This document shows, in pieces, positions 2,809 to 59,240 of a stretch of DNA of 64,000 bases (position 1 is its first letter; each line of letters opens with the position of its first letter). Location: positions 2,475 through 66,474 of the forward strand of contig JBAZQK010000004.1 of the NCBI GenBank assembly GCA_041645215.1, in the 5' to 3' direction. Origin of the DNA: Patescibacteria group bacterium (lineage in GTDB: Bacteria > Patescibacteriota > Patescibacteriia > Veblenbacterales > UBA10138). The position numbers and the translations under genes are program-made. Below the pieces are notes generated by a model. It ran no database searches. It was not told the origin of the DNA and was given only the letters and a program-made list of their open reading frames with translations.

Positions 2809-3043
2809 ATATCAAATTTATAGCTGGATATCCACCTTACCTTCAGCCCGAGGCTGATTCTCGCCGGCACGCCCCGCCAAAGGCGAGGCTCCGCCGAATG
2901 GCGGGCCGAGGGCGGCGGATGGGCCTTGGGCGCACACCTTTTGAAACAGAGGTGAGAATCTGCCTATGGCATGAGGCGAAAACGCCCATGGTTTTAGGCG
3001 AAGCCCCGCTAAGCGGGGCGAAGGCGGATAAATTAACCTAAAT

Positions 3044-3208
3044 AGGACTTACGGGTTTGAGCCAAGTTCGAGGCAAAACCGAGCATTTGAGCGAGCCGTA
3101 GTAAAACTACGGTGAACGAAAAGCGGAGGTTTTAACAAAGAAATTGGCCAAAGCCGCTTGCGGGGTCGTCCCTGCGCCCGCCCTGCAAGCGGCCAACCCG
3201 TAAGTCCT
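3044..3208. mobile_element. 165-bp MITE-like repeat, copy 1 (TIR AGGACTTACGGGTT / AACCCGTAAGTCCT)
   Basis: Near-identical copy at 4725..4888 in direct orientation. 14-bp perfect terminal inverted repeats. Internal hairpins (ccgtagtaaaactacgg; gccgcttgc...gcaagcggc). Confidence 0.75.
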
Positions 3209-3214
3209 ACTAAA

Positions 3215-4687
3215 CTATAACTTGTCTAAATCAACTGTGTCATCAATCCGCACTTGCGCCACAAAATCCGGAATGTGACTTACTATAATCATGGCTCCGG
3301 CAAAAGCCTTTAACGCCCGCGCAATTACCGGCAAGTGCCGCCAATTTATGTGATTAGTCGGCTCGTCCAAAATTAGCAAACCAGGCTTAAATAGAACTAA
3401 GCGGGCAAACACCAATAGTCCTTTTTGCCCTTCGGACAAACTTTTAATTTGACTCGCCAAAATTTTGCCATCCAGTAAAAATCCTGCCGCGGTGGAACGC
3501 AATAAATGTTCGTCTTTTATTTCCATAACTTCTTCTAAACTGTCGTACGCTGTTTTTTTAAAATCAAGCGTGGAAAAATCCTGCCGACAATAACCAACCC
3601 GCACGTCTTGGCCAATGGTTACCCGTTGAGCTTGCCCTAATACTATTTTCTCTAAAAAAGTGCTTTTGCCGATTCCGTTGGGGCCAGTCAGCAACAAATG
3701 CGAACCGCGACGGAGCACAATATTAACCGCCTGGCTGACGGGCTCGCCCTGCTTAATAATACCAATCTGCAATATTTCCAAAATCTTACCGTTAAAATCA
3801 AAAGCAAATTCCTGGGTGGAAATTTCAAAATTACGGATAGTTTTATCCTCGCGCCGCACCTCCACCATACCCTCCTCCATATCGGCCGCATATTCACGCA
3901 TGCGCTTGGCCACGGAACGCAACTTCCCGCCTTTGTGGGCAAACACCTCGGCTTGGGCAATTTTCTTTTTTACGTCGGCCTCGGCCCGAGCGTTCAATTG
4001 GCGCTCCCGTTCAATCCGGCTGGCAATCTGCTCAACCACGTTAAAATAATTGCCCACATACTGTTCAATCTTTTGCGCATGCATATCCAAATACAACACG
4101 CCGTCAGTAAAAGCGTTTAAAAAGTCAGCATCGTGCGATATAACAATAACGGTTTTGTCATAGCTCATTAAAAAACCAGTCAAGTGGTTGATGCCGGTTT
4201 GATCAAGGTTGTTAGTTGGCTCGTCCAACAATAAAATATCCGGATCTTGCATAAGCGCGTAGGCCAATAATAAACGAGCTTGTTGGCCGCCGGAATGAGC
4301 CCGGACTTTTTTGGTTAAATCGGTTTTTAAATTAACCGCCTGTAACACGTCGCCAATATGTTTGTCCAAATTATATGGTATGTCTGTAAAAGTGGTGGCA
4401 AACCAAGCGCGCAGCGTTAAATCCAGATGGCTCGGCGCTATGACCTGTTTGGCAATGCCAATAGTGGCATTCTTAGGTGTAATAAAAATACCGCCGCGAG
4501 TCGGCGTAAGCTCGCCTAAAATAAGTTTGAACAACGAGGTTTTACCAGCCCCATTCTGGCCCATTAAGGCCACGCGCGAACCAGTGCGAATTGAAAAACT
4601 AACCTCATTCAAAATAGGTTTGTGGTCGGCGTGATTAAATACGACTTCGTCAAATCGAAGCACGACACTGTTATTTGGCATAACCAT
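3215..4687 (-). CDS. ABC-F family ATPase (tandem ABC domains, no TM domain; EttA/Uup-like)
   Basis: Two nucleotide-binding domains. Walker A GQNGAGKT and GPNGIGKST; signatures LSGGQQARL and LSEGQKGLL; Walker B LLLDEPTNNLD and LILDEPTNHI. Confidence 0.9.
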   Translation of the reverse strand: MVMPNNSVVLRFDEVVFNHADHKPILNEVSFSIRTGSRVALMGQNGAGKTSLFKLILGELTPTRGGIFITPKNATIGIAKQVIAPSHLDLTLRAWFATTFTDIPYNLDKHIGDVLQAVNLKTDLTKKVRAHSGGQQARLLLAYALMQDPDILLLDEPTNNLDQTGINHLTGFLMSYDKTVIVISHDADFLNAFTDGVLYLDMHAQKIEQYVGNYFNVVEQIASRIERERQLNARAEADVKKKIAQAEVFAHKGGKLRSVAKRMREYAADMEEGMVEVRREDKTIRNFEISTQEFAFDFNGKILEILQIGIIKQGEPVSQAVNIVLRRGSHLLLTGPNGIGKSTFLEKIVLGQAQRVTIGQDVRVGYCRQDFSTLDFKKTAYDSLEEVMEIKDEHLLRSTAAGFLLDGKILASQIKSLSEGQKGLLVFARLVLFKPGLLILDEPTNHINWRHLPVIARALKAFAGAMIIVSHIPDFVAQVRIDDTVDLDKL

Positions 4688-4724
4688 AACAGATTACGCT
4701 ATATGAACTGTTTTGACAATAATT

Positions 4725-4888
4725 AGGACTTACGCGTTTGAGCCAAGTTCGAGGCAAAACCGAGCATTTGAGCAAGCCGTAGTAAAACTACGGTGAGCGA
4801 AAAGCCGAGGTTTTAACGAAGAAATTGGCCAAAGCCGCTTGCGGGGTCGGGCTGCGCCCGCCCCTAAGGCGGCAAGCGCGTAAGTCCT
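4725..4888. mobile_element. 165-bp MITE-like repeat, copy 2 (TIR AGGACTTACGCGTT / AGCGCGTAAGTCCT)
   Basis: About 90% identical to 3044..3208. The TIR carries a compensatory G-to-C / C-to-G change that preserves end complementarity. Confidence 0.75.
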
Positions 4889-6603: not shown

Positions 6604-7018
6604 AGTAATATTTAAAATTATGAATTATGTGCTAATTTGAGCCTCAGAGCGGAAACTCGACCAATCTCCCGTTTAGGCTTTTTCGCAAACTCAATGTACC
6701 ATAATCTAACAATAGTGTAAAGGGCTATATATTTATTGCTATTGGAAACAAATTTTAAAACCCATATAAAACCGCCAACCATAGTGGCTCACGATTTTTT
6801 ATTTGGCTCCAAATAATGGATGATACTCGAACTTATTTTATGAAGGCTGGCGCTCAGGAATATAAGTTACCAGTGGGGGCAATATAACCGCGCAAAGTTG
6901 CCTTTGTGAAAATAAGAAATGGTAATTGGACCAGCAACAAGTTGAATAATAGTAAACCCCGTTACACCCCGCCGAATCGGCGGGGCATTTTTGGGGAAGA
7001 TTTTTAATTTCCCATTCA

Positions 7019-7083
7019 CCCCGTTAGAAGTCTCCACCAGTGGTGGAGTATCCCGACAGCCATTGGGATTGCTTCCAACGGGG
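7019..7083. mobile_element. MITE-like element, CCCCGTTAGAA-TIR family (short copy)
   Basis: ccccgttagaag...cttccaacgggg terminal inverted repeats. Flanked on both sides by ccccgccgaatcggcgggg hairpins and an outer ccccgttacaccc / gggtgtaacgggg inverted pair. Confidence 0.55.
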
Positions 7084-7973
7084 TTCATCCCCGCCGAATC
7101 GGCGGGGCATTCTGGGTGTAACGGGGTAAATCGCCAGGAAATATTATGTGAAGGAATAGAGTAGCAAGACTTATTTTTAATGTCTCAACTTGCCCAACTC
7201 CGCCGCTAAATTTTATACCAAATTCTTACTATTCGCCTATTTCCTCCAAACCTGCCTGCCCACGGTCCCGCTGCGACGGAACCTCGCCTATAGCGGGGTG
7301 TGACCGGCAGGCAGGGGCGGGCGCGCGAATTAGATCATGGAAAAGATAGGATGGACAATCAAAAGTATGGTTCAACTTTTTAAAACCAATAGCCTCACCC
7401 AATAAAATAAATAGTATTAACCCCCCAGAGCAGGCTCTGGGCTCATATTCTGATTTTAATCCCGTAGCAAGCGGGCGCGGTATTATGATAAATGGAACTC
7501 CCTCCCGCTGTCCGCCGGCTGGCGGAATCCGGAGGTTATTCTGACGAAGCCCCGCTAAGCGGGGCGGAGGCGGATAAAAGAATCGAGTATCGAATAATTA
7601 AAATAGAACCCCCCAGCTAAAGCCGTGGTACCTGTCCCAACGCTCCTGCGGGGCGAACCGTAACACATATTGTGCGGCCGCACAATATGTGTTACGGCAT
7701 GCGGCCAGCGTCAGCCTTGGTCCCGAACTTTGCTCTGGTACAAAGGCGCCAGCGGACCAATTCACTCACCTTTGATGTACATCGGGGTGATCCTCTGGAC
7801 GCTGCGCTAGAATGAGTTGTGTTTTAACCTCTTGCTTTATTACCTAAAGGTTATATTTTTTTATACATCTCGCGCCATCAAATTTTGTGTTAAATTGTTA
7901 CTATTCGCCTATTCCCTCCAAAGGCGGGCAGACGCACGAATTAGATCATAGAAATGAACTACCTCACAGCCAG

Positions 7974-8051
7974 CCCCGTTAGAAAGCTTTGCACCGAGGA
8001 ATCTCAAAATGAGATATTAAAAACAAACTTAAAAACAACTTTCTAACGGGG
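7974..8051. mobile_element. MITE-like element, CCCCGTTAGAA-TIR family (short copy)
   Basis: ccccgttagaaagc...ctttctaacgggg, 13-bp perfect TIRs, AT-rich interior. Confidence 0.55.
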
Positions 8052-8317
8052 CAAACCGACGAGGTATTGACAGCGGAGGAGAATAATAAAGAGATTGATT
8101 AAACATATTGTTCGGCCATTTGAATTCAATAATCCACAAAGTGAAATGAAACTCCCTGCCGATGTACAAAAGGGAGGGTATGCTGGCGCAGCCCCGCTTG
8201 GACGGGGCGCAGAAGAATAAACACCTCCGGTTGTAGAAATCTTCAGGTGTTTAAAATGCCACAACTTTGCTCGGGCGCCGCCCCGCCGAATCGGCGGGGC
8301 GCCGGCGGAAGTGATAA

Positions 8318-9889: not shown

Positions 9890-10200
9890 AAGTTATTTTT
9901 AAAATTTAAGATTAAAATACTATCGACTTTTTAAAAACCATATTAAATGAAGCTTCTACGGGTTTATGGTTCGACTATGCTCACCATCCTGAGATTGTCG
10001 AAGGACGCCAGTAACATCCTTCATTTCTTCGTCCCGCCACGGCGGGACGAAGGCGGATAAAGGCAGGAAATATATATCCATTATACCATATAATTAAAAA
10101 ATAAAACACCAACCCAACGCTTTCACGTCGGTTTGTACTGTACACACTGGCTCGCTGTTGTGCTTGCCTGCCTTGAGTGGGGAGGAAATTAGAACTAAAA

Positions 10201-15381: not shown

Positions 15382-15434
15382 GTTGCTGTCACAAAACACC
15401 CAGCTGACTAACCAGCTGGGTGTTTTATTATTTA

Positions 15435-15535
15435 CCCCGTTAGAAACAGAATGCCCCGCGGCTTGCCGCGGGGATGAATGCCGGTCGGTTTTAGCGAACA
15501 CGGTGTTTAATGCCCCGTGTGAGTTTCTAACGGGG
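15435..15535. mobile_element. MITE-like element A, CCCCGTTAGAA-TIR family (101 bp)
   Basis: ccccgttagaaac...gtttctaacgggg, 13-bp perfect TIRs. Internal hairpin gccccgcggcttgccgcgggg. Homologous inverted copy at 50898..51001. Confidence 0.7.
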
Positions 15536-15536
15536 T

Positions 15537-16061
15537 TTACAAAATAATTGGAAAAACCTTAAACAATAAGAACAACCAAAGTATAATTTTAACCACCAAC
15601 TCCAGTGGCACTCTAACATAAGAAATTGTCGGCCGAGCCAAATAACTTTCCAGCGCCAACCATACGGCCATAATTACATCCCACCAGATAAAAAACAGGA
15701 AAAAGTTAAACTGATAGCCGGTAAGACCATAAAGAACTATTAATATGGCAATATTGCTGAATTTATCACTCCAGTGGTCAAGATAACCTCCGAAGTATGT
15801 AACTTTGTTTTTTAAACGCGCCATCGCCCCATCCAGCAAATCCAAAAAATAAACCAAGCCGAAGACCAAAACCTGAATTAAGCTTGGTTTAAATATCGCC
15901 CAGGGCAACCAAACCAGTAATATCACGCTGCGAAATATAGTTACCTGATTCGGTGTCAACCACTCTGGCAAAATTTTTACCAAAGGTATGAATTTTTTAT
16001 CCTTGGTCAGCCTTAGCTGGTCGTGAAACTTGGAAAGATTTTGTCCAATTTTGCTTAACAT
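15537..16061 (-). CDS. CDP-alcohol phosphatidyltransferase family protein
   Basis: D-x2-DG-x2-AR-x8-G-x3-D-x3-D motif (DLLDGAMARLKNKVTYFGGYLDHWSD) in a multi-TM protein. Confidence 0.8.
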   Translation of the reverse strand: MLSKIGQNLSKFHDQLRLTKDKKFIPLVKILPEWLTPNQVTIFRSVILLVWLPWAIFKPSLIQVLVFGLVYFLDLLDGAMARLKNKVTYFGGYLDHWSDKFSNIAILIVLYGLTGYQFNFFLFFIWWDVIMAVWLALESYLARPTISYVRVPLELVVKIILWLFLLFKVFPIIL

Positions 16062-16377: not shown

Positions 16378-17601
16378 TTAGTTGATATTGAAAGAATTGA
16401 CTCTTACTAATTCTCCTTCTTTGACTGTAAATTTCCTGGTCCGGCCGCCTCCTTGTTGATAATATTCTCCCACTGCTAGCAGTACCCTTCTTATCCCACG
16501 CGGGCGGACAGTGAGAACTAACCTTCCAGATGAATTATATATCTTAAAAGCAAAGTTGGTTTCATTATAGAATCTGACCTTACCTTTGAGCGGATACGAC
16601 CTAGAAATAGTGGGTGGTTCTTCATTGTTTTTTAAAGTCGTAGGAGCTGTAATTTCCTCCTGTTTAGGAACGGTGGAAGGCTGAGACGCTTGAGTTTCCG
16701 CAGATATATCCTGATTCTCTTTATATCTTTTATCTACGGCTTTTTCTTTTGGTGGTTCGGAAGCAGGTACTTCAGTCGGCCACAAACCTTTGCTTTTTAA
16801 GACAACCTCCCTACTCACCTTTTTAAGAACATCACCAGTAACAGGATCATAACCTGGTCCAGAATAGAACTTATACTGTCCATCCGGCCACTGGCTGTAA
16901 TATTTCAGCGGTTCGCCAGTTTTCGGATCAAAATCATAATCTTCAGTCGGCCAAAGTCCTTTGCTTTTCAAAATTATTTCCCGAGTCACCTTCTTTACCG
17001 GTTCGCCGGTCAAAGGATCAAAGCCGGGTTGAAGGTAAAATTTGTATTCGCCATTGGGCAGCTGACTGTAATATTGTATCGCTTCTCCAGTTTCCGGATC
17101 AAAAGGCGAATTGTTCTCGGGCCAAAGTCCATTGCTTTTCATACTGACTTCAGGAGTAACTTTTTTGAGCGAGTCACCGGTGAATGGATCAAAGCCGGGT
17201 TCGGAGTAAAACTTGTATTCGCCATTGGGTAGCTGACTGTAATACTTGACGGGTTTACCGGTTTCCGGATCGAAAAAGGTGTTTTTGGAAGCCAGATAGG
17301 CAAACAGGAAGAAAACAGCGATTCCGCCGAAAACGAGCGCGCGATAAAGACTCTTTTTCTTTTCCGGCAAAGGGGTGAAGGCTAAGGCCATGCGACCGAA
17401 AGGCAGCATGACTAGAACAGCTAAGAGTAAGGCGGCAAGCGCCTTGCTTAACTGGACATCCAAGCCGGTGATACCGCGGACTCCACCTTGAATCCAATTA
17501 AATATACTCCAAAAAAATAATAAGTTTCCGCCTGTAAGTAAAAGAAACAGGAGGAATAGGCCGATTATGACCAATACGGCGTTTCTTATGAATTTCTTCA
17601 T
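16378..17601 (-). CDS. hypothetical membrane protein with 4 tandem ~55-aa repeats
   Basis: N-terminal TMs, then four repeats DPETG-PVKYYSQLPNGEYKFY--PGFDP-TG--LKKVT-E---KSKGLWP. The repeats are also visible at DNA level (~165-bp periodicity, 16800-17290). Confidence 0.65.
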   Translation of the reverse strand: MKKFIRNAVLVIIGLFLLFLLLTGGNLLFFWSIFNWIQGGVRGITGLDVQLSKALAALLLAVLVMLPFGRMALAFTPLPEKKKSLYRALVFGGIAVFFLFAYLASKNTFFDPETGKPVKYYSQLPNGEYKFYSEPGFDPFTGDSLKKVTPEVSMKSNGLWPENNSPFDPETGEAIQYYSQLPNGEYKFYLQPGFDPLTGEPVKKVTREIILKSKGLWPTEDYDFDPKTGEPLKYYSQWPDGQYKFYSGPGYDPVTGDVLKKVSREVVLKSKGLWPTEVPASEPPKEKAVDKRYKENQDISAETQASQPSTVPKQEEITAPTTLKNNEEPPTISRSYPLKGKVRFYNETNFAFKIYNSSGRLVLTVRPRGIRRVLLAVGEYYQQGGGRTRKFTVKEGELVRVNSFNIN

Positions 17602-23440: not shown

Positions 23441-23645
23441 ACATGCAAATCCATGAAAAACATAAACGACCTATTAACTGAATTAGTTAAGGATTCAACC
23501 TTACAGAGCAGTGAACTAGAGAAGTAATATCTAAATTTAAAAGTGTTGATTTTAGAGCGTTTGAGGTAAAAAAAGGACAGGTGCCAATGTAATCCACCCG
23601 AAGGGTGGGATGAGTGGGGCAGGCCATTGAGCTACACATAGAAAC

Positions 23646-23800
23646 TTGGCTCCGAACGCTGAACGAAATCCGAACTTTTTTTAGCGAAAATCCGAACGCT
23701 GAATTTTGAAAAACTTTTAAGCTCGGGCGGGCAAAAAGGAAGGGGGTTGGGGGGAAGGAATTTTTGCCCGTCCTCGCTTTTCCGCCGCCGCCGAATTTCG
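23646..23800. repeat. IR-A copy 1 (155 bp), begins with core TTGGCTCCG
   Basis: 100% identical inverted copy at 26624..26780. Internal sub-repeats tccgaacgctgaa x2 and a G-rich hairpin gggcaaaaaggaagggggttggggggaaggaatttttgccc. Confidence 0.9.
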
Positions 23801-23848
23801 TGCCAACTTCGTTGGCGCGCCGCCTATAAATTTAAAAATTCATTCTTT

Positions 23849-26230
23849 TTAATTCTTATGAAATTTCCAAACAACGTCATAGGCCAAATCCGCAAGTTCT
23901 TCTTGTCTTTCTCTTATTTCTTTCTCGCCCCATTTATAATTAAGTTTTTCAAATTCTTTGATTAACTTTTTATTAATTTCTAAATCAGACCTCCTAAATT
24001 CACCAACTTTTTCTTGCAACTTTTTATTTCCAACTAAACCATTTATTTTTTTAGCTATTAATGTTAAGTTGCCTAACATATTAACATAATTCTTTATTTC
24101 TTTTTTAGTTAGCGACCATTGAGAGGGATCCTGCGGTAAAACATGTTCGATATTAACCTTTGTAAAATTTAAAGTTTTCTCTTCGGTTGCAGATAATGCC
24201 TTTTCTATATTGGAGAGAATGTAAAGAACAAGTTGATAATTTCTGTACTCAATTTCTAAAAACTTCTCTTTAAATAATGACTTATTCGGATAAGAAAGGT
24301 TTTTTTCGAACTGCGATAATGCTCTTTGTACATTTTTGATTATATTTTCCTTGCTACTAGAATTCTCTATAGCTTTTCTGACCTCCTTCGCAGCGTTGAA
24401 ATAAACCCTTTCTACAACGTTCCCAGATAATTTGCAAACGGCAGAATATGCAAAATGGTACCTTTCAATTACTTTAAAAATTTCGCTGAAATCATACTCA
24501 ATCTTGTCTTTATTCATCAATAAACATAGCACCAACGAATAACATTGAGTTATCCCCATGATCCTTAATCCGGCCATGGCCTCGTTAATTTTCTGAGCTG
24601 TTTTCTTTTCTTGAAAATCCTCTAACCAATCTTCGGGACTTATTGAATCATTAGCAATTTTATAATAAAATCCAGAAGCCTTCTGTAATTCTTGCAAGAA
24701 CGCCCTTGGATCGCCCTTAACTTCGTTTTTTATTTCTTTGTAAAGTTTCTTTTCTGGAACAAAAGAATATCTCGAAAGCCAAAAATATCTAATAAATTTT
24801 GAAACATTCAATGGTCCTCTTGCGCTTTCAACGTTATTCTCAATGTTACTCCAAATATCCTTCGCAACATCTTCTCCCCCAGGAGTTTTCGGCAACTTAC
24901 CAAAAAGATAGTTCTTTAATAAATCAGCCGCTGTTAGGTCTGCTCCGCGTGCGTTGACGGTTTCAAATATAGAATATGCGTCTTCTTCATTTTCTATCTT
25001 TATTAAAATTATTTTTAAACTAAATATTCTTGCTTTAAAATCGTCTAAACATTTAACTTTATCTTCTAAATTAAATTGATTAAGATCTTCGCTTATTTTG
25101 TCTCGGATAAACTCATAATTAGATTTTATTAATTTTTCCTCTTTTGTTTTTGGCTTAGAGGCTAGAATATTAGAATCTTGCTTCTGGATATGTTCCGTAA
25201 AAAAGTTGTTCAACGAATCTCCGCACTTTAATCTGTTTTCTTGTTTCGCAGTAACAGGATCTTTGCGTGCTATTATACTTTGCGTAAGAATCGATTTTTC
25301 AGTTTGATCTAATTCTTTGTATTTATCTCTAATAACGGCCATCAATATGGTTAATGTTATTAACCTTTGCTGACCGTCTATAACCTCAACAAAACCGTCT
25401 TCATCGTATCTTTCATAGTTGAAGACAAAAGATCCTAAAAAAGTGCTCTCTCCACTAATCAAATCACCCCACAAATCGGAAACTTGATCATTGGTCCACG
25501 AATATGGTCTTTGATATCTCGGTATCTTATATTTTTCCTCACCATCATATAAAATAGCCCTTAGCTCTATATCGACAGCACGAAAATCCAATTTATCGAT
25601 TTTTTGCCTATTATAACTAATGGTATTATACTTCATATTGTTCCCACTTTTTACATCAGAATTTTCTAAATTATCTTCCGTTTGTTTGTCGTTTTTTCTT
25701 GTTTTAATTTTTGTATCTTTCTTTTTCTGAATCATTTTGTCAGTAATTATATACGATTTCTTAATTTTCATAAGTCTCTTTTCGGATAACGGGTATTCCT
25801 TTTTATCTTTTTGAGAGCCCTCCAAAAGATTTTTAATCGTGTTGCCATCTTCCTCGTTTAACCTATTCGGGGACCCTCGTCTGATCCCTCCCCATTTTTT
25901 GGCTATCGTTAATTCAGAAACGATCCGATCTGCTGGAACGCTATGCAAAAGATCTAAAGTTATTACCGGCTCAATATCCATTAAGCATGGGAATGGTCCG
26001 CCTCTCCAAACTTTCTTTGATGCCTCATGGCTAAAATACGGTTTTGAGATTACTTTTAAGATGCCCGAAAAACGCATTTCTCCTGTTATATAACAAACTA
26101 AAAAATCTCCGGGTTTAATTTGCTGGGTTAAATGCCATCTATTTTCGCGAAACCCACTTAATTTAAAATTATTCTTTTTTGCTTCCTCCCAGGTTTCAGG
26201 AGTGAATAAATCTAACCAATATTGAGTCAT
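23849..26230 (-). CDS. GmrSD-like type IV restriction endonuclease (EVE/PUA-like N-domain + DUF262 + DUF1524)
   Basis: N-terminal EVE-like modified-base reader fold pattern. DUF262 motifs YQRPYSW and DGQQRLITL. C-terminal DUF1524/HNH-like NIEHVLPQ. 793 aa. Confidence 0.8.
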   Translation of the reverse strand: MTQYWLDLFTPETWEEAKKNNFKLSGFRENRWHLTQQIKPGDFLVCYITGEMRFSGILKVISKPYFSHEASKKVWRGGPFPCLMDIEPVITLDLLHSVPADRIVSELTIAKKWGGIRRGSPNRLNEEDGNTIKNLLEGSQKDKKEYPLSEKRLMKIKKSYIITDKMIQKKKDTKIKTRKNDKQTEDNLENSDVKSGNNMKYNTISYNRQKIDKLDFRAVDIELRAILYDGEEKYKIPRYQRPYSWTNDQVSDLWGDLISGESTFLGSFVFNYERYDEDGFVEVIDGQQRLITLTILMAVIRDKYKELDQTEKSILTQSIIARKDPVTAKQENRLKCGDSLNNFFTEHIQKQDSNILASKPKTKEEKLIKSNYEFIRDKISEDLNQFNLEDKVKCLDDFKARIFSLKIILIKIENEEDAYSIFETVNARGADLTAADLLKNYLFGKLPKTPGGEDVAKDIWSNIENNVESARGPLNVSKFIRYFWLSRYSFVPEKKLYKEIKNEVKGDPRAFLQELQKASGFYYKIANDSISPEDWLEDFQEKKTAQKINEAMAGLRIMGITQCYSLVLCLLMNKDKIEYDFSEIFKVIERYHFAYSAVCKLSGNVVERVYFNAAKEVRKAIENSSSKENIIKNVQRALSQFEKNLSYPNKSLFKEKFLEIEYRNYQLVLYILSNIEKALSATEEKTLNFTKVNIEHVLPQDPSQWSLTKKEIKNYVNMLGNLTLIAKKINGLVGNKKLQEKVGEFRRSDLEINKKLIKEFEKLNYKWGEKEIRERQEELADLAYDVVWKFHKN

Positions 26231-26235
26231 ATGTT

Positions 26236-26445
26236 TTATTTCATTAAATTATCAAGCGAAACGCCGAGCGCGTCCGCAATTTTTTTGACTGTATCAATAG
26301 TAGGGTTGGGTGTCGAGCCCGCTTCAATTTTAGCGATAGTATGAAAAGCCAAATTTGCCTTTTTTGATAAGACATCTTGAGAAATACCGAGCTTATTTCG
26401 GAATTTCTTTATATTCTCGGCGATTGTGGATTTTTCGTTTGACAT
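26236..26445 (-). CDS. XRE-family helix-turn-helix transcriptional regulator
   Basis: 69 aa with canonical Cro/CI HTH (LGISQDVLSKKANLAFHTIAKIEAG). Forms an operon with the GmrSD-like gene. Confidence 0.85.
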   Translation of the reverse strand: MSNEKSTIAENIKKFRNKLGISQDVLSKKANLAFHTIAKIEAGSTPNPTIDTVKKIADALGVSLDNLMK

Positions 26446-26623
26446 ATTCGTATAGTTTTACTACGATAGTTAGTAGATAACCATGATCATAACTTATCAC
26501 TAGTTAGTATATGAAATTTTTACAATTTAGTCAAACGAAATTAGGGAGTTCCTTGATGTTGCGCGCGAATGGGCAGGGTGGGTCAAGCGCAACTGTATTG
26601 GCGGCGCATTTCGCAAAGCGAAA

Positions 26624-26780
26624 TACGAAATTCGGCGGCGGCGGAAAAGCGAGGACGGGCAAAAATTCCTTCCCCCCAACCCCCTTCCTTTTTGCCCGCC
26701 CGAGCTTAAAAGTTTTTCAAAATTCAGCGTTCGGATTTTCGCTAAAAAAAGTTCGGATTTCGTTCAGCGTTCGGAGCCAA
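26624..26780. repeat. IR-A copy 2 (inverted), ends with core GGAGCCAA
   Basis: Reverse complement of 23646..23800 with no mismatches. Confidence 0.9.
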
Positions 26781-26898
26781 ATTGTATGTTGTGAGTTTAT
26801 TGCCTCGGCGCTTCGCGCCTCGGCAGGCAGGTTGTATAGTATTTGCCAAGATTTTTTGGGTTCAATCGCCACCTTTTGCGAAAGCAAAACGCGGTTCG
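26772..26898. repeat. IR-B copy 1 (126 bp), begins with core GGAGCCAA
   Basis: Reverse complement of 28347..28472 with no mismatches. Shares the 9-bp core with IR-A copy 2. Confidence 0.9.
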
Positions 26899-26998
26899 CC
26901 GTTGCAAAGCAACGGATAAACGAAGTTTATGAGCCAATCCTTTTATTTCCGCCAAAGGCGGAAAGCAAAGCGATAATTTTTAATAGCCCAAAAACGAT

Positions 26999-28507
26999 AT
27001 GAAATATTTTTTATACATTAGAAAATCAACAGACGAGGACGACAGACAAGTTTTGTCGTTGGAAGCGCAGGAAACGGAATTGAAAGAATTTGCCTTGCGG
27101 GAAAATCTTTTGATCGCCGCGACTTTTCGAGAATCGCAAACTGCCAAAGAGCCGGGCAGACCGATTTTCAACGATATGCTCAAACGAATGGAAAGCGGCG
27201 AAGCCGAAGGGATTTTAGCGTGGCACCCCGATAGATTGGCAAGAAATAGCATAGACGGCGGACGAGTTATTTTTCTGATTGATACCGGAAAAATCAAGGC
27301 GCTAAAATCCCCGACATTTTGGTTTGAGCCGACCCCGCAAGGCAAATTTATGTTGAATATCGCTTTTGGGCAATCCAAATATTTTGTGGATAATCTTTCA
27401 GAGAATACCAAAAGAGGGTTGCGTCAAAAATTGCGCCGAGGCGAATTGCCCGGCTATGCTCCGCTCGGCTATTTGAACGATTTGCTAAAGCACACAATGT
27501 ATAAAGACCCAGAGAGATTTCGCCTCGTCAAGAAAATTTTTGAACTTTACGCAACTGGCAATTATTCTCTGAAAGATGTGCGGAAGTTAATAACTTCCGC
27601 TGGCTTGTTGAGCCGAAAGAAAAATATGCTTTCCGTTTCAAATATCCAAAGCATACTTTCAAATTCTTTTTATTACGGCGTTTTCAAATATAACGGCGAA
27701 ATGTATGACGGAAAGCATGAGCCAATGATTCCAAAGAAACTTTTTGAAGCGTGCCAAAAAGTAATGGCGGATCGTTCGCGCCCGAAAAAACCAAGCCAAA
27801 AAGAATATCCATTTAGAAATATGCTCGTTTGCGGTGAGTGCGGGTGCGCCATCACTTCCGAAACGCAAAAAGGACATAACTATTATCGTTGCACCAAAAA
27901 GCGGGATAAAAAATGTTCGCAAAAATATATTCGCGAGGAAGTTTTGGCAAGCCAGATTAAAGACGAGATTCAAAAAGTTTCTTTGTCTTCCGCTTGGGCG
28001 GAGTGGATGTTAAGCGAGATGAATAAAGAAGAAGCGGAAGCCGCCCAAAGCGGAGCCGTTTTCGCTCAAAATCTTAAAGACAAAATAAAAGAACTTGAAG
28101 GAAAGCTCGACCTACTTTTGGACGCACATTTGGACGGCACAATTTCTCGCGAGGAATACACCGCTAAAAAGGAAAAAATCATCAACGAAAAAAGCGAGTT
28201 TTCCGAAAAATCAAAGGATTTTGAGCGAAACGGCAATCATTGGCTCGAACCGGCCAGACAATTCATTTTAGCGGCTCAACAAGCCAAAATTGTCGCTTTG
28301 CAAGAAAATCCCGTCGCGGGACGGGATTTTCTCAAAAGGATTGGCTCGAACCGCGTTTTGCTTTCGCAAAAGGTGGCGATTGAACCCAAAAAATCTTGGC
28401 AAATACTATACAACCTGCCTGCCGAGGCGCGAAGCGCCGAGGCAATAAACTCACAACATACAATTTGGCTCCGGGGGTGGGACTCGAACCCACGACCAAG
28501 TGCTTAA
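26999..28507 (+). CDS. large serine recombinase (resolvase/invertase catalytic domain + recombinase domain + zinc ribbon)
   Basis: N-terminal YIRKSTDEDDRQVLSLEAQ (catalytic Ser), recombinase domain, Cys-rich CGECGCAITSE...YYRC, coiled-coil tail. The last ~50 codons are encoded by IR-B copy 2 and the tRNA-Asn 3' end. Confidence 0.9.
   Translation: MKYFLYIRKSTDEDDRQVLSLEAQETELKEFALRENLLIAATFRESQTAKEPGRPIFNDMLKRMESGEAEGILAWHPDRLARNSIDGGRVIFLIDTGKIKALKSPTFWFEPTPQGKFMLNIAFGQSKYFVDNLSENTKRGLRQKLRRGELPGYAPLGYLNDLLKHTMYKDPERFRLVKKIFELYATGNYSLKDVRKLITSAGLLSRKKNMLSVSNIQSILSNSFYYGVFKYNGEMYDGKHEPMIPKKLFEACQKVMADRSRPKKPSQKEYPFRNMLVCGECGCAITSETQKGHNYYRCTKKRDKKCSQKYIREEVLASQIKDEIQKVSLSSAWAEWMLSEMNKEEAEAAQSGAVFAQNLKDKIKELEGKLDLLLDAHLDGTISREEYTAKKEKIINEKSEFSEKSKDFERNGNHWLEPARQFILAAQQAKIVALQENPVAGRDFLKRIGSNRVLLSQKVAIEPKKSWQILYNLPAEARSAEAINSQHTIWLRGWDSNPRPSA
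28347..28472. repeat. IR-B copy 2 (inverted), ends with core TTGGCTCCG fused to the tRNA-Asn 3' end
   Basis: Identical to the reverse complement of 26772..26898. The core equals the last nucleotides of tRNA-Asn (GGAGCCAA). Confidence 0.9.
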
Positions 28508-28540
28508 CAGGCACCTGCTCTACCACTGAGCTACCCCGGA
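28466..28540 (-). tRNA. tRNA-Asn (anticodon GTT), CCA encoded
   Basis: Cloverleaf folded by hand. Acceptor TCCGGGG/CCCCGGA, D-arm GCTC-AGTGGTA-GAGC, anticodon loop CTGTTAA, T-arm GTGGG-TTCGAGT-CCCAC, discriminator G plus CCA. Confidence 0.9.
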
Positions 28541-50668: not shown

Positions 50669-50897
50669 AGATTAATAAGATTTAATTTTTATTTATCACA
50701 TTTTAATAGTACTCCTTCTGAGAAAAACAAAAAACTGCCCGATTGGCAGTTTGGTTGTATCTTATGGCGGGTGTGTCCCGATGAACGTCGGGAGACCCCC
50801 CATGCCCCGTAGCGTCCTCCAGAGGAGGACTGCTACTGGGTTTCTTCATTACCCCCGAAGAACGAACTGATATTCTTCTACGGGGCAAGTCAGTGAA

Positions 50898-51001
50898 CCC
50901 CGTTAGAAGCTCACACAGGGCATTAAACCCCGTGTTCGCTGTTGAGAATTGGGCATTCATCCCTGCGGCAGAGACCGCAGGGCATCCTGCTTCTAACGGG
51001 G
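50898..51001. mobile_element. MITE-like element B, CCCCGTTAGAA-TIR family (104 bp, inverted relative to A)
   Basis: About 85% identical to the reverse complement of 15435..15535. Paired compensatory substitutions in the internal hairpin (ccccgcgg/ccgcgggg vs ccctgcgg/ccgcaggg). Confidence 0.7.
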
Positions 51002-51016
51002 TGAAGTACATTCCAC

Positions 51017-51181
51017 TGGTGGGCGGCGATGGATTTGAACCATCGACCTTCTCATTACCGCGCCCCGTACCAAATTTGGGTTGGTGGGTGTGCCTGGATT
51101 CGAACCAGGGACCTCTTCATTATCAGTGACCCCGCACAACTTCGCCTTTGCTCAGTAAACGGGGCAAGAGTGCTTTTTCTC
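51017..51181 (-). other. two tandem tRNA-3'-half-like remnants, each ending in ACCA
   Basis: Minus strand: ...GGTC GATGG-TTCAAAT-CCATC GCCGCCC ACCA (51017-51081) and ...GGTC CCTGG-TTCGAAT-CCAGG CACACCC ACCA (51082-51181). T-arm plus acceptor 3' strand, but no matching 5' acceptor strand. Confidence 0.55.
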
Positions 51182-51490
51182 TGGTGGCTATTTACAACAC
51201 CGGTTGGACTTACTTTAGCAAAAAATCCTGACCCTGACCAGCGATTTACCCCTTCATGCACCCCTTCATTCGCTCGGTCGCGGCTTGAAGGGGCAGATTT
51301 CGCAATATCACGCTTAAACACTCGCTTCTTTCCCCTCACTCCTCGCAAAATCAAAGTCCGACTTCACTACGGAAAGGGTTGCTCCGCTCCTCGCTTCGCT
51401 CGTCGCTCCGCAAGTCGCGGGGTCGCGTCTGGTGGCTCGGCCTTCTCCTTCCGTCCCGCTATTTCTTTTTGCTCGTCGTGGGGGGGGTGA
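51182..51490. repeat. 309-bp terminal inverted repeat, left copy
   Basis: 100% identical to the reverse complement of 59241..59549. Outer end TGGTGGCTATTTAC, inner end poly-G(8). GC-rich. The embedded ORFs (51055..51354, 59377..59697) are judged spurious. Confidence 0.9.
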
Positions 51491-51572
51491 AGACGGGTAA
51501 AAAGGAAGGACGGAAGGAAGAAGGCCTCGTTAGAGGGGGTCGGAGGGCGTATAATGACAATATAACGCTTCT

Positions 51573-52436
51573 ATGTCAAAACCACGTCTTAAACAATTTG
51601 AACGAGCAGTGGTCGCCGACCCCCTCAAGCTCCAGCCCCGCGACATCGCGCTCCTCCGCAATGTGGCCGAGTTTCGTTTTCTAAACACCGAGCAGATTTT
51701 GACGCTTCACGAGGGAAGCCGCCGCAACCTGATGGAGCGATTGAGCCGCCTCTACCATCACGGCTTTCTTGACCGACCAGTCAGTCAAAGCTCCGCACGC
51801 CTTACCTCGTCGCACATGGTTTACTCCTTGGGACGCAAAGGAGCGGAGCAACTGTCAAAAGACGCGGAGGAGCGCGAAGGGATTTATCGCCGCGTCAAAG
51901 AAGTTGAGCGAACGCTCCCTCTTATGGCTCACGCCTTGATGATTTCTCAATTCCGAGTTTGCCTTACGCTGGCGGCGAAAACTCACGGGGTTAAAATTAC
52001 TCGCTGGTCGCAAGGTTACGACTTAAAAGAAACCTTGCGTCATGTCCACGGCGAAAATCCCTCGTTAGTGCCGGACGCATTTTTTACGCTGGAAGATAAA
52101 GATGATGTTATCAACTTTTTTCTTGAAGCCGACAGAGGCACGATGACGGCGGAAAGGTTTGTAAATAAATTAAAAACATATTGGTCGTGGCGAAGCGACG
52201 AGAGGTTGAAAAAGAAACTCCGTCTTGCCCGTTTCCGCGTCCTCACTATCGCCCCGTCGGAACGACGGAGCGACAGTTTACGGAACGCTGGAAAGGGCGG
52301 CGACCCGCGAGGAGAAGGAAGTTTAATGTTTTTATTCGCTTCCGAAACGCGATATAATACGGCTACACCAAAGACGATTCTCCAAACGATATGGAAATCG
52401 CCCAAGGACGAAATTCCTCACTCTATTTTAGAGTAG
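51573..52436 (+). CDS. replication-relaxation family protein (winged-helix, plasmid/ICE-type)
   Basis: N-terminal LQPRDIALLRNVAEFRFLNTEQILTLH...SRRNLMERLSRLYHHGFLDRP matches the replication-relaxation family signature. Confidence 0.7.
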   Translation: MSKPRLKQFERAVVADPLKLQPRDIALLRNVAEFRFLNTEQILTLHEGSRRNLMERLSRLYHHGFLDRPVSQSSARLTSSHMVYSLGRKGAEQLSKDAEEREGIYRRVKEVERTLPLMAHALMISQFRVCLTLAAKTHGVKITRWSQGYDLKETLRHVHGENPSLVPDAFFTLEDKDDVINFFLEADRGTMTAERFVNKLKTYWSWRSDERLKKKLRLARFRVLTIAPSERRSDSLRNAGKGGDPRGEGSLMFLFASETRYNTATPKTILQTIWKSPKDEIPHSILE

Positions 52437-52690
52437 AGTGTTATAATGGATTTAGAAAACAGAATGGTTTGGAAGCAAAAGTTATTTCCAATAATCATAT
52501 ATATTGTAATCGGATTTTTTAGTAGCGCGGGTTCAGAAAATCCTGCTTCAAAAGCATATGCGCCAACTATTCCACCGCAAACCAATCCGTTTTACGAGGA
52601 TATAACCGCATAGTTTTCTGGTAAAATTAAGTAAATAGCCGTCAGTCGAAACGGCTTTAATTAAGCAGTTGTTTAATAAAATCTTATATT

Positions 52691-53437
52691 ATGGGAACTT
52701 TAATTTTTTGGATTGTCGTTATCGCCTTCGTGGGCTATATCTACCTGCGGCGGAAAAAGAAGATTCCGCCTCTTTTCAGTTTGAACGCCAAAGCGGGAGG
52801 TCTCGGCAAAGGAACATCGGTCATTAACGAAAACAACATCGTGGAGGAGTGGTCGCAAATCATACTCGGTATGGGCGGCAAAGGCGAGGAACTCCTGAAA
52901 TCCATCACCGCCAAACTTCAGGCCCAAAACTTGCCGGATGTGGTCTTTGCCCGCAAAGAGGCGTCTTTGGGCCAGTCAAATTACACCTTGGGCGACAAGA
53001 GATACGAGTTTGTTACTATGCGTCACCAACGCTACCCCGACTACGAGATGTTTATCGGCGCGATTGACCGCGCGGGACAGCTTAAGGTGTCGTGGTATCT
53101 TACTGTCGCCTTGCCGGGGAGAATTATGGGAAAGTTGCGGGCCATAAACAAAGCGGACAGGGACGCCATGCCCCGCGCATTGAGAGCACCTCAAATGCTC
53201 TCCAAGACGCTCGGTAAAATGCTCGCCCAGCGGCTAAACGAAAAGATGGCCGGTAAGCCCGTGCCGATTCGCGTCCGGCCGGAGGATATGACGATGGACG
53301 ACAAGGAAGAACTCGGCACATACATTACCGTCGCCCACAATGTCGTCTTGGCCGCGCTGGAGGAAATGATGAACGACCTCAAACTGGATTTCTCCAAAGT
53401 GGACAAGCACACGCAGGGCTTCCTTAATCTTTCGTAG
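52691..53437 (+). CDS. hypothetical membrane-anchored protein
   Basis: N-terminal TM, 248 aa. No motif. Confidence 0.5.
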   Translation: MGTLIFWIVVIAFVGYIYLRRKKKIPPLFSLNAKAGGLGKGTSVINENNIVEEWSQIILGMGGKGEELLKSITAKLQAQNLPDVVFARKEASLGQSNYTLGDKRYEFVTMRHQRYPDYEMFIGAIDRAGQLKVSWYLTVALPGRIMGKLRAINKADRDAMPRALRAPQMLSKTLGKMLAQRLNEKMAGKPVPIRVRPEDMTMDDKEELGTYITVAHNVVLAALEEMMNDLKLDFSKVDKHTQGFLNLS

Positions 53438-53439
53438 TT

Positions 53440-54936
53440 ATGGAAAGCAATTTCCAAAAATGGCTACGGCTTGTTTTCAGCAAGCCGAAAGTTTTGCCGA
53501 TTTGGGCTAATGAAGAAAACCAAGAGCCGCTTTTACGCTCCCGCTCGCCGAACCCCGACGAGCTGGCTTTGGGTTGGGCGGCGGGCAAGGACGAAACGGA
53601 CAACCGCGAAGTCCATCAACTAAAAGGCGTGTCCCAAGAACACCGCGACACGCATTTTTACGTCATCGGGGCTTCCGGTAGCGGCAAAACTAAATTTTTG
53701 GAAACGCTCGCCAAGCAGGACATAGAAAACGGCTTGGGCTTCGGGGTGCTTGACCCGCACGGCGACCTGACGGAAGACATCAAGGGCTATCTCTACGTTT
53801 TGAAAAAGCACGCGGCCGAACAGCTTCAAGAGCGTGTTGTCCTGATTGATCCCACTGACCCGAAATATACTGTCGCCTTCAATCCGCTTGAAATAACCAA
53901 AGGAGAATCCGCCGCCTCCGTTGCCTCCGAGCTTACGGAAGCGTTCAAGAAAATATGGAAGGACGCTTGGGGCGCGAGAATGGAGGACTTATTAAAAAAC
54001 TCCCTTATCGCCCTTATTGAAAACGACCTCACGCTCGCCGAGTTGCCTTTGTTTCTTACCAACGCCGAAGTGCGTCGCAAGATTTTGGAAAAAGTTAATC
54101 ACGGCGTCAGCCGCCAGTATTTTGAGCGGTTTAATTCTTTGCGGCGAACTACGCAAGACGAGTGGATGGAATCCACTTTGAATAAAGTGAACGCCTTTTT
54201 ATTTGACGACAATATCCGGCAAATGCTCTCCTCGCCCAAAAGCTCTTTCAACCTGCGGGACGTAATGGACGAGGGGAAAATTCTCCTCGTTAAACTGGAC
54301 AAGGGCAGGTTGAAAGGCAACGCCGATCTTTTGGGGTCGCTTATGCTCGCCAAAATACAGGCGGCGGCGTTCTCCCGCACCGACACGCCGGAGCTTCAAC
54401 GGCAGAAGTTTTATTTATACATAGACGAGTTCCAAAACTTTGCGACAGAGAATTTTATCAGTATGCTCGGTGAAGCTCGCAAGTATCGGCTCGCGTTGTT
54501 GTTGGCTCATCAAAACCTCGCCCAACTGCCCGCCACCCTGCGGGCTTCCATTCTTTCCAACTGCGGGCTTCAAGCGTATTTCAGAATATCGCGCGACGAC
54601 TCCAACATTTTGGCGAAAGAATCACTCGCCTCAATTTACAACGACCCGCCCGGCTGGGAGCGATATATTCAAGCACTTCAAGAATTGCCGCGTCGCGGGT
54701 GCGTCATAAAAAACAAAATTGACGGCGGGGTGATTGCCGTGCGGACGCTCGACCTTCTTCCTCCGCACGAATTGGCGGAAACGGACGAGGAGCAATTCGT
54801 CAAAGAAGTTGCCGCCTGCGAGATAGGCAAAAACTATCTTTGCGAAAGGAAGAAGATCGAGGAAGAATACAAGGCACGGCGGGACAAGCTCACCAGAGCC
54901 GACGAATCGGAGAGTTTCAGAGAGCCGAGGCGTTAA
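53440..54936 (+). CDS. VirD4/TraG/TraD-like coupling-protein ATPase (AAA_10-like), soluble form
   Basis: Walker A GASGSGKTKF, DPHGD, Walker B YLYIDEFQNF, ARKYRL. Paralog of 57893..59182. Confidence 0.65.
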   Translation: MESNFQKWLRLVFSKPKVLPIWANEENQEPLLRSRSPNPDELALGWAAGKDETDNREVHQLKGVSQEHRDTHFYVIGASGSGKTKFLETLAKQDIENGLGFGVLDPHGDLTEDIKGYLYVLKKHAAEQLQERVVLIDPTDPKYTVAFNPLEITKGESAASVASELTEAFKKIWKDAWGARMEDLLKNSLIALIENDLTLAELPLFLTNAEVRRKILEKVNHGVSRQYFERFNSLRRTTQDEWMESTLNKVNAFLFDDNIRQMLSSPKSSFNLRDVMDEGKILLVKLDKGRLKGNADLLGSLMLAKIQAAAFSRTDTPELQRQKFYLYIDEFQNFATENFISMLGEARKYRLALLLAHQNLAQLPATLRASILSNCGLQAYFRISRDDSNILAKESLASIYNDPPGWERYIQALQELPRRGCVIKNKIDGGVIAVRTLDLLPPHELAETDEEQFVKEVAACEIGKNYLCERKKIEEEYKARRDKLTRADESESFREPRR

Positions 54937-55028
54937 TTGGACTGTTTCAATAATACGGATATAATGAGGGTATTATAAATTCTTTAAGGTCGAGACCATA
55001 AAAACTTTAATTATAAACAAATAATCTT

Positions 55029-55736
55029 ATGAAAAAAATAACCTTTTTAACTTTAGCTCTTGCGGTTGTTATCACAACCGGCAACCTTGTTGCCGTAGCT
55101 GAAATAAACCCACTGGCGGGAAAAATCATCGCGCTTGACGCCGGACACGGCGATACGGACGGTGCGGTAAATGAGAGAGTGCTGAAATCTGACGGCACGC
55201 CCGTAACAGAGGCGGAGGTAAACTGGGATGTAGTCCAAGCGTTAAAAACAAAGTTGGAAATTTCTAACGGCGCGTATGTGGTGGTCACCGAGCGTTTCTC
55301 AACGCGGCGGGATAGAGTGAACGACGCAGTAACGAAATGCGCCGAGCTTGATGTGGATGGCGTTGTTGGGGCAGACAACAGAAAGTGCGATGTCTTGGTA
55401 TCAGTTCACCACAACGGGAGCACCGACCCGACACATGACGGCACGCTCACTATTTACACCCAGAACTCGGACAAGCCGTTGGCTAAAGCCCTTTACGATT
55501 CATTGCTCCCTCTTACCAATAAACCGGAAGGAATGTTGAACGGCGGCTATGGGATGACAGTATATAAAAATCTTGTTTCTACCATCACCGAAGCGTATTA
55601 CATTACTAACGACGACGAAGCGCGTTTATGGCTTTCCGGCACAAGAACACCGGAGGAAGTAGACGCACAAATTGTCGGACTGACCAATTACTTCGCTTCT
55701 CAATCTTCCGGCGGCAAGGGAGGAAAACCAAGATAA
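55029..55736 (+). CDS. N-acetylmuramoyl-L-alanine amidase (Amidase_3 family), secreted
   Basis: Signal peptide. LDAGHGDTDGA zinc-site motif. VSVHHNGS and E-containing blocks typical of Amidase_3. Confidence 0.75.
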   Translation: MKKITFLTLALAVVITTGNLVAVAEINPLAGKIIALDAGHGDTDGAVNERVLKSDGTPVTEAEVNWDVVQALKTKLEISNGAYVVVTERFSTRRDRVNDAVTKCAELDVDGVVGADNRKCDVLVSVHHNGSTDPTHDGTLTIYTQNSDKPLAKALYDSLLPLTNKPEGMLNGGYGMTVYKNLVSTITEAYYITNDDEARLWLSGTRTPEEVDAQIVGLTNYFASQSSGGKGGKPR

Positions 55737-56202
55737 CCGCCCGCCCGCCGAAAACCTCTCCCTTGAAAAAACTCGCTTGACGAAAATCTCACCCGAAACC
55801 GCTTAATCGCTATTACAGAATGTCTGCGACATACTGTAATTTTCTGGCTTGATTTTCTGCTCTTTTTTCTCGGTCGCTTTCCTCAAAAACCTTTTCTCTC
55901 CGAGTAAAGTTTTTTCAGGAATTTTCGGCGTTATGGCGTCCGAATCCTTACCGCCTTTTGAAAGCACCCCGCAATACGATTGTGGCGTGTTTTCAAAACT
56001 CATTCGCCAAAGGCGAAAGAGCAAGGACGGACGGCTTCGTCCGCCATTTCAAAAAAGCCCCGCCCTACGCGGGGCTTTTCACATTTTCCTTATTGCCATC
56101 AGTGTCTCTTAATTTTAGCGTCAGCTTATCGCCCGTAAAGGTAGTACAAAGTCTCCACCTTGACTGGCGCAAGCTATCAGCCGCTTTCTCCTGCTTCGGT
56201 CG

Positions 56203-56556
56203 ATGGCAGATAAGGCGGCGATGCCAAACAACATAAATAGCCGCCAGTTAAATAAAAACATGATTAAACAAATCATATCTAACTGGACGGGTTCAGAGAA
56301 AACGTCCGACCTCGTTCGCGGTCAAATCGCGGAACGCTGGGGAGCCGAAGAGGCCAAGCGTTACGATCCGAGGACGAATTGCCTCACTTTCAAAGCGTGG
56401 GGCGATAATGGCTATGTCGTCCGCAAGGGCGAGAAAGCCATTAAATCCTTCATCATCGTTGAGAAGAAGGATGAAAAGACGGGAGAAGTCGTTGAAAAAC
56501 GACTCAAGAATATCTTCCTCTTTTACGAGAAGCAGGTCGAGAAGCTTCCCGCGTAA
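56203..56556 (+). CDS. ArdC-N-terminal-like (DUF1738) ssDNA-binding protein
   Basis: TFKAWGDNGYVVRKGEKAIK resembles the ArdC N-domain block TFKQA..GG.VRKGEKG. 117 aa. Confidence 0.4.
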   Translation: MADKAAMPNNINSRQLNKNMIKQIISNWTGSEKTSDLVRGQIAERWGAEEAKRYDPRTNCLTFKAWGDNGYVVRKGEKAIKSFIIVEKKDEKTGEVVEKRLKNIFLFYEKQVEKLPA

Positions 56557-56710
56557 CAGAAAGGGAGCCGGCTCCGGAAACGGGGTTGGCTCCCTTTTTT
56601 GCGTTTACACTGAACTGGTTTTTTAAGATAGTATTTTATGAGTAATCGTTAAATCGGAAAGTTTCAGAGAACCGAAAACATTGACAGAATAAACAAGCCA
56701 TTGTTTAATT

Positions 56711-57538: not shown

Positions 57539-57568
57539 AACAATACAATTTTGCGCTTCTTTATTTTT

Positions 57569-59182: not shown

Positions 59183-59240
59183 AACGCTCTCGGCCACGCG
59201 GCCTTGAGCGTTTGTTATTTTATTTTTCAATCACGATTTA

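Follow-up and report, generated by a model that had tools for sequence, protein, structure and literature searches.

The window analysed here is a 64,000-nucleotide stretch of a 112.7-kb MAG contig from Patescibacteria (CPR) and contains five short elements with ends CCCCGTTA...TAACGGGG, one of them nested within another, while a sixth copy in the same genome lies 3.8 kb upstream of the window (L281 6166-6286). Element A, a 101-bp non-coding element, occupies positions 15435-15535, where its left 13-bp terminal inverted repeat (TIR; CCCCGTTAGAAAC, 15435-15447, plus strand) and right 13-bp TIR (15523-15535, minus strand) enclose hairpin 1 (CCCCGCGG-CTTG-CCGCGGGG, 15454-15473) and hairpin 2 (ACACGGTG-TTTAATG-CCCCGTGT, 15498-15520), the latter with one T.C mismatch. 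The element is flanked by a target-site duplication (TSD) of TTTA at 15431-15434 and 15536-15539. The adjoining gene encodes a CDP-alcohol phosphatidyltransferase (15537-16061, minus strand), and A sits exactly on the stop codon of this gene, a TAA at 15537-15539 that is rebuilt by the TSD. Element B (104 bp, 50898-51001) belongs to the same subfamily as A and lies in the opposite orientation, with ends CCCCGTTAGAAGC, hairpins at approximately 50913-50935 and 50961-50982, and TGAA at both 50894-50897 and 51002-51005. The third element (6957-7126) has variant ends CCCCGTTACACCC, a TAAA duplication at 6953-6956 and 7127-7130 and two occurrences of the hairpin CCCCGCCGAATCGGCGGGG, and it hosts the nested 65-bp element at 7019-7083, which has its own duplication (TTCA, 7015-7018 and 7084-7087), two internal hairpins and 88% identity to a copy in the MAG contig L085, where a second case of nesting with a separate TSD was found. 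The fifth, a 78-bp element at 7974-8051, has perfect ends CCCCGTTAGAAAG around an AT-rich interior, and its flanks (ccag/caaa) form no TSD.

Four of these copies had been claimed in a sequence-only reading of the window, and all were present where it had placed them; the outer element at 6957-7126, inside which 7019-7083 is nested, had been overlooked. The identity of ~85% given there for A and B was an overestimate, as alignment of A to the reverse complement of B gave 82% in aligned columns and 80% with gaps, and the copy L057 from another Parcubacteria MAG, at 86%, is nearer to A than B is. The same reading took A and B to have perfect 13-bp TIRs in common, but only 11 bases are common to the two, while the repeat of each element is perfect within itself (...GAAAC in A and ...GAAGC in B). 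The identical ends attributed to the shorter members are indeed perfect at 7974-8051, and 7019-7083 departs from this by a single mismatch at its right end (TTCCAACGGGG).

With up to one mismatch, CCCCGTTAGAA occurs nine times on the two strands of the window compared to an expected 1.4, a count that was reached in none of 100 shuffles. This excess makes it very improbable that the elements are chance inverted repeats or inert leftovers of a segmental duplication, an explanation in favour of which stands only the missing partner gene and against which stand the hundreds of copies elsewhere and the precise insertion polymorphism of element A described below. Comparison between loci also showed that only the elements match and that their flanks are unrelated, so that the copies are not parts of a larger duplicated region, the outcome that had been named as fatal to the mobile-element reading.

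The insertion polymorphism was found by alignment of the window to L276, a syntenic contig from another sample whose phosphatidyltransferase protein is 94% identical. L276 reads ...CCAATTATTTTGTAAATAATAAAACACCC... at this position, which is the sequence of the two flanks joined by a single TAAA, where the window has two TAAA and the 101-bp element A, and in 120 bases around the site there is only one other difference. Contigs L154, L155, and L277 carry the element. The empty site proves that element A is a transposon, and A is a recent insertion; the empty site in L276 could equally represent a precise excision. Since the stop codon of the phosphatidyltransferase gene lies inside the duplicated tetranucleotide, insertion of A left the gene intact.

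To collect relatives, genomes were scanned for two ends 53-83 nt apart, which gave at least 118 loci, and metagenomes were scanned for a single end with GTTTACCCCGTTAGAAAT and no constraint on length, which gave at least 120 contigs, with 108 ends having a partner end within 300 nt among the matches listed. The end pair of the family is CCCCGTTAGAA...TTCTAACGGGG. The further copies that the sequence-only reading had called for are thus numerous in other genomes, and the hosts among the matches listed are MAGs that represent many classes of Patescibacteria as well as Desulfobacterota, Planctomycetota, Nitrospirota, Omnitrophota, KSB1, Cloacimonadota, and others. Several matches lie on contigs too long for binning errors (one of 1.24 Mb, the closed 3.3-Mb genome CP113000.1 from Desulfobacterota, and CPR contigs of 80-290 kb), and long contigs with the element come from CPR, Desulfobacterota, Omnitrophota, Planctomycetota, and Nitrospirota. 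A blastn search of the consensus element against 72,556 plasmids, mostly from cultured bacteria, gave no match. Among IMG/VR contigs classed as viral, a scan with a 15-mer returned 34 matches, nearly all of them chance singletons such as that in L128 within a peptidase gene, and the real short elements were those of L121 (2297-2354 and 5697-5725) and L131 (4876-4943), one of which is a 29-bp bare end pair with the duplication CTCA/CTCA. These elements on viral contigs suggest phages as a possible vehicle between phyla.

Across ~250 copies, the inverted repeat is exactly 13 bp long and has two parts. Positions 1-11 are CCCCGTTAGAA and are invariant in the family outside a minority subfamily, while position 12 is A or G and position 13 any base, with both agreeing between the two ends of an element. 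When one element was taken per interior cluster, the two ends matched at position 12 in 93 of 104 cases and at position 13 in 87 of 104 (among the matches listed), compared to chance expectations of ~55% and ~38%, respectively; from position 14 onward, matching was at the chance level. A double change can be followed within one lineage, as these two positions are AC at both ends of A and GC at both ends of B, L057, and L022. In the minority subfamily, the terminal bases are T...A in place of C...G, with six T/T elements versus three mixed T/C elements and with TSDs intact. Members of this subfamily are the upstream copy L281 6166-6286 together with L039, L058, L232, and L037, and here, too, the terminal base covaries between the ends.

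The flanks were equally regular. Checking for TSDs, as the sequence-only reading had advised, revealed identical 4-bp flanks in 84 of 127 copies, with only three matching over 5 bp and two over 3 bp (among the matches listed). The duplications comprise 21 different tetranucleotides among the matches listed, mostly TNNA within G|TNNA|C, and the target logo from 258 ends, again among the matches listed, is palindromic, with G in 45% at -5, T in 83% at -4, and A in 85% at -1. In the unbiased single-end scan, a left flank of TTTA was followed by a right flank of TTTA in 63 of 108 cases (among the matches listed). Terminal inverted repeats combined with a duplication of fixed length and variable sequence are what cut-and-paste transposition by a DDE enzyme with a 4-bp stagger characteristically leaves. 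The proposal of a non-autonomous, transposase-dependent element (MITE) is therefore backed by the TSDs, the further copies, the unrelated flanks, the nesting, and the empty site of A, and we consider it highly probable that the elements are MITEs, that is, non-coding passengers moved in trans by a cut-and-paste transposase, the chemistry of which would be of the DDE type. The partners that had been suggested do not fit this picture. IS200/IS605 elements make no target duplication and have no terminal inverted repeats, and IS630 duplicates TA, so neither would leave the 4-bp TSD seen here. MITEs derived from Tn3 (TIMEs), which have ends starting with GGGG and a 5-bp duplication, were likewise rejected as relatives, given ends of CCCCG... 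and 4 bp in the present family.

The small size and stem-like ends of these elements also bring to mind REP/REPIN palindromes, whose spread depends on a domesticated HUH enzyme of the RAYT type, encoded in single copy and active on stem-loops of single-stranded DNA. REPINs are, like these elements, hairpin-forming inverted doublets of ~30-100 nt dispersed between genes with no transposase inside, and a reading of this kind would account for the lack of a transposase between the ends anywhere, for the covariation of positions 1, 12, and 13, and for the minimal pure-hairpin forms of 28-40 nt. REP/REPIN insertions make no target duplication, however, and a variable 4-bp TSD is the rule here, with 21 different sequences flanking copies among the matches listed. 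REPINs also carry a conserved GTAG, and no such 5' tetranucleotide is present in this family, nor was any recurrent or RAYT-like neighbouring gene found across 275 loci. A REP/REPIN origin is accordingly improbable. Integron attC sites, or remnants of cassette arrays, are a still weaker candidate and one we regard as very unlikely, even though the GTTAGAA and TTCTAAC heptamers visible in the ends recall the core GTTRRRY and the inverse core RYYYAAC and chromosomal integrons occur in several of the host phyla. The orientation of the half-sites contradicts it, as the order is GTTAGAA...TTCTAAC on either strand rather than RYYYAAC...GTTRRRY, and so does the structure of the empty site. The copies are also dispersed singly and not in arrays, they are flanked by variable 4-bp direct repeats, and no integrase is nearby.

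Between the ends, the elements are essentially arbitrary in sequence. The 108 copies fall into 52 unrelated interior clusters with lengths from 28 to 299 bp (among the matches listed), deletion series shrink down to bare end pairs of 28-40 bp, and there is no conserved ORF. Within the subfamily of A and B, by contrast with this general pattern of unrelated interiors, the hairpins have been conserved. The compensatory change noted earlier in hairpin 1 is a true C-G to T-A pair (CCCCGCGG/CCGCGGGG versus CCCTGCGG/CCGCAGGG), while the second C-to-T change that had been listed with it is one-sided and not compensatory; hairpin 2 has a T.C mismatch in A and a G.T wobble in B at different stem positions. 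A full-length alignment of A, B, five more CPR copies, and 14 copies from Desulfobacterota and Planctomycetota (n = 21) showed a common layout of end, GC-rich hairpin, AT-rich spacer, hairpin with a TTTAATG-type loop, and end. In this alignment, 87% of cells were paired compared to 42-56% when the partners were slid, and the observed covariation score was reached by no shuffle. Each hairpin contributes eight pairs, of which five in hairpin 1 and four in hairpin 2 have changed on both sides (9 of 16 in total). These pair counts across 21 relatives indicate that the compensatory pair in hairpin 1 is real and general.

The sequence-only reading had taken the covariation to imply selection on a folded structure and had offered a structured small RNA as an alternative. 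The covariation itself holds across the 21 related copies, but it is confined to one subfamily and is no proof of a role as RNA, as the signal would be no different for a terminator, a DNA palindrome, or a protein-binding site. As an explanation of the whole family, structured small RNA or cis-regulatory RNA genes, in which a three-way junction would be closed by the 13-bp stem and the repeats kept for RNA function, seem to us improbable, if slightly less so than REP/REPIN palindromes. The folds are stable (z-scores against shuffles of -4.6 to -7.0), compensatory changes affect both internal helices as well as end positions 12-13 and 1, hairpin 1 of A lies downstream of a gene and on the strand of that gene (minus) is followed by a T-rich run, CATTCTGTTT, scoring as terminator-like, and the interiors are more structured than the flanks, with z < -2 in 31% versus 9% of flank controls. 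Set against this are the TSDs, the empty site, and the nesting, all of which denote mobility of DNA, as well as the occurrence of copies in both orientations and the 52 interior clusters in 108 copies (among the matches listed), which are mostly unstructured; about one-third of members are structured, and structure is not a family-wide property. A consistent promoter is absent, and an Rfam search of the window returned only three tRNAs; for the elements, no family reached its gathering threshold, and the top sub-threshold match was to Leu_leader at 29.5 bits compared to a threshold of 50. A secondary, co-opted RNA role limited to the A/B subfamily is a more plausible version, though we still think it doubtful. 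The A/B hairpins are kept by compensatory change and most likely act as terminators, RNA-stabilising stem-loops, or DNA palindromes. As hairpins are absent from most family members, they are dispensable for mobility. Some copies of the delta-type carry secondary insertions (L105 2474-2600; L193, L205, L225, L216, and L227), either a segment CTCCCTCCGGGCCAGAGGCC... that recurs in the hairpin 1 loop or other inserts of 190-200 nt in the spacer, which points to a further small mobile sequence with these elements as its target.

If the elements are MITEs, an enzyme must be supplied in trans, and a partner transposase had been proposed to lie elsewhere in the genome. Five identical 94-bp copies in MAG DX4.bin27 (JAJYUJ01) and the insertion polymorphism of A speak for the existence of an active enzyme. 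No transposase domain was detected in the window or in 10 kb added on each side, including DDE_Tnp_1_7 and DDE_Tnp_1_4 in the window, and none was found in the flanks of other copies. A search of all fetched loci for end pairs 0.4-6 kb apart with a matching TSD gave no real case, every candidate being two separate short elements, and the "orphan" ends that might have been halves of long elements were all short elements with a degenerate other end. No autonomous element was found in the 1.84 Mb of flanking sequence around ~270 copies, which comes from short-read assemblies that under-represent multi-copy insertion sequences. All-against-all clustering of ORFs, from the window and the first 118 loci and then from 275 loci, produced housekeeping families only, the largest being two-component regulators. 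The ISEcp1 transposase was taken from plasmid pC15-1a; a homologue search with it gave only relatives of at least 83% identity, and tblastn with this protein against all loci (1.84 Mb), a search limited to close relatives, gave no match.

The best resemblance to a described system is to piggyBac and the IS1380 family. The terminal repeat of piggyBac is 13 bp long (CCCTAGAAAGATA) and its ends start with CCC; in the IS1380 family as classified in ISfinder, ends start with CC and the duplication is 4-5 bp, and ISEcp1 makes 5-bp duplications. The present family has ends of CCCCG..., and the ends of ISEcp1 read as CCTAGATTCTACG (CCTAG...), with only CC and TAGA-like bases in common between the two. 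At its TTAA target, piggyBac joins its two ends with an offset of 4 bp, and target choice depends chiefly on contacts to the outer T and A (T0 and A3; PMC7351741), and IS1380 has been used as the prokaryotic outgroup of piggyBac (PMC10813416). Common to these systems and the elements described here are a 4-bp stagger, a conserved outer T and A (TTAA versus TNNA), and ends of CC(C) followed by a TAGA(A)-like stretch, whereas the central two target bases are free in this family and, unlike in piggyBac, not fixed. No piggyBac/IS1380 transposase was found next to any copy. From this resemblance, a transposase of the piggyBac/IS1380 lineage may be suggested tentatively, as one possibility among others.

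In the mechanism we propose, the enzyme would recognise the 13-bp ends through positions 1-11 (CCCCGTTAGAA), with positions 12-13 free and yet alike at both ends, and would make a 4-bp staggered cut in the target with a preference for G|TNNA|C, after which repair of the stagger would yield the 4-bp direct repeat. The mechanism may depart from the textbook form, as a transposase dimer has no obvious need for identical bases at positions 1, 12, and 13, and the matching of these positions at both ends in ~100 independent lineages is left unexplained by the standard model. It is possible that the matching reflects descent from parents with perfect 13-bp repeats, co-evolving specificity classes, or an intermediate in which the ends pair; the covarying positions 1, 12, and 13 would point to such an intermediate, for example a single-strand stem-loop or a panhandle. 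A more speculative reading, which we hold to be rather unlikely, is that the elements are the footprint of an undescribed prokaryotic system, either a pan-phylum piggyBac-like TNNA transposase, possibly with seamless excision, or a trans enzyme encoded elsewhere, the substrate of which would be only 13 bp with identical or pairable ends.

As MITEs, these elements resemble those already described from bacteria, especially Correia and also RUP, ERIC, Nezha, and Chunjie, in being short (here 28-299 bp), non-coding, bounded by TIRs, and flanked by a short TSD, with insertion polymorphism, a duplication of fixed length and variable sequence, and several independent copies per genome. They are intergenic and often near gene ends, as are Correia elements and other MITEs, some of which have hairpins able to terminate transcription. 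Correia elements, from Neisseria, have a TA duplication and 26-bp ends, in contrast to the 4-bp TSD (TNNA) and 13-bp ends found here, and are likewise orphans, as we know of no cognate transposase for them. The known MITE families are, to our knowledge, confined to a genus or species, whereas the end of this family is exact in many phyla with interiors that are mostly unrelated between lineages. In the searchable literature, the end sequence as a string occurred in primers only, and a search for MITEs in these phyla gave nothing relevant. The family consists of MITEs with three unusual features, namely exact cross-phylum conservation, a two-part 13-bp end, and orphan status. Conservation of the end base-for-base from CPR to Desulfobacterota, Planctomycetota, and Omnitrophota implies either a transposase of exceptionally broad host range or DNA exchange at very high frequency between bacteria of the subsurface, the ultra-small CPR symbionts among them. 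The tag GTNNA-CCCCGTTAGAA can serve as a tracer of such DNA exchange and as a lead to the missing enzyme, and if that enzyme is piggyBac-like, with a relaxed TNNA target and a 13-bp recognition site, it would be attractive in practice as a compact tool for genome engineering. In annotation, the elements account for many intergenic hairpins and for some altered gene ends, including rebuilt stop codons and new prepilin leader peptides.

The rebuilt stop codon at element A is one instance of a wider pattern. In 10% of copies, an ORF of 100 aa or more has its stop codon inside the TSD, compared to 1.7% of random GTNNAC sites, an enrichment that is expected as a survivorship pattern in compact genomes. 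The codons for G-F-T in prepilin-like genes, GGG TTT ACN, contain the target GTTTAC, and they are the site of the element ends at L079 1263-1380 and at L270 967-1060 and 1929-2020. The right end in L079 has a 1-nt insertion and codes for the leader MITKISKRG|FTLIEL, and in L270, a decayed copy splits MNKQKR-FT...FTLIELLVV and gives a new start codon, indicating that the elements can rewrite pilin signal peptides.

Other repeats and mobile modules were observed in the window. A conjugative or integrative module (51012-59549) lies directly to the right of element B and contains a Replic_Relax protein (51573-52436), an amidase, a trypsin-like protease, a tRNA-Arg (57569-57642), and two coupling ATPases resembling VirD4/TraG (53440-54936 and 57893-59182). 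Perfect inverted repeats of 309 nt (51182-51490 and 59241-59549) bracket the module, and a tRNA 3' fragment with encoded CCA is present on the minus strand at approximately 51015-51047, as at an integration site. An island at 23643-28540 encodes a restriction enzyme of the GmrSD type (23849-26230) as well as a large serine recombinase (26999-28507) that abuts tRNA-Asn (28466-28540), with long inverted repeats at 23643-23801/26625-26783 (99%) and 26772-26898/28347-28473 (100%); the stretches 23779-23835 and 26598-26641 match the Portnoybacteria contig L043. Direct repeats of 130 nt (3039-3168 and 4720-4849, 95% identical) flank a double ABC-ATPase gene (3215-4687), and L281, from the same population in another assembly, breaks at this repeat. 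Three tandem 171-nt repeats (16778-17275, 70-79% identical) lie in a 407-aa ORF (16378-17601) with a weak DUF2963 match. Two families of GC-rich hairpins recur between genes, one with the sequence CCCCGCCGAATCGGCGGGGC and the other with CGAAGCCCCGCTAAGCGGGGCG...GGCGGATAAA; their sites are at 6967-6994, 7089-7116, and 8281-8308 and also at 2999-3032, 7545-7578, and 10028-10061, and they may be terminators or another small repeat family.
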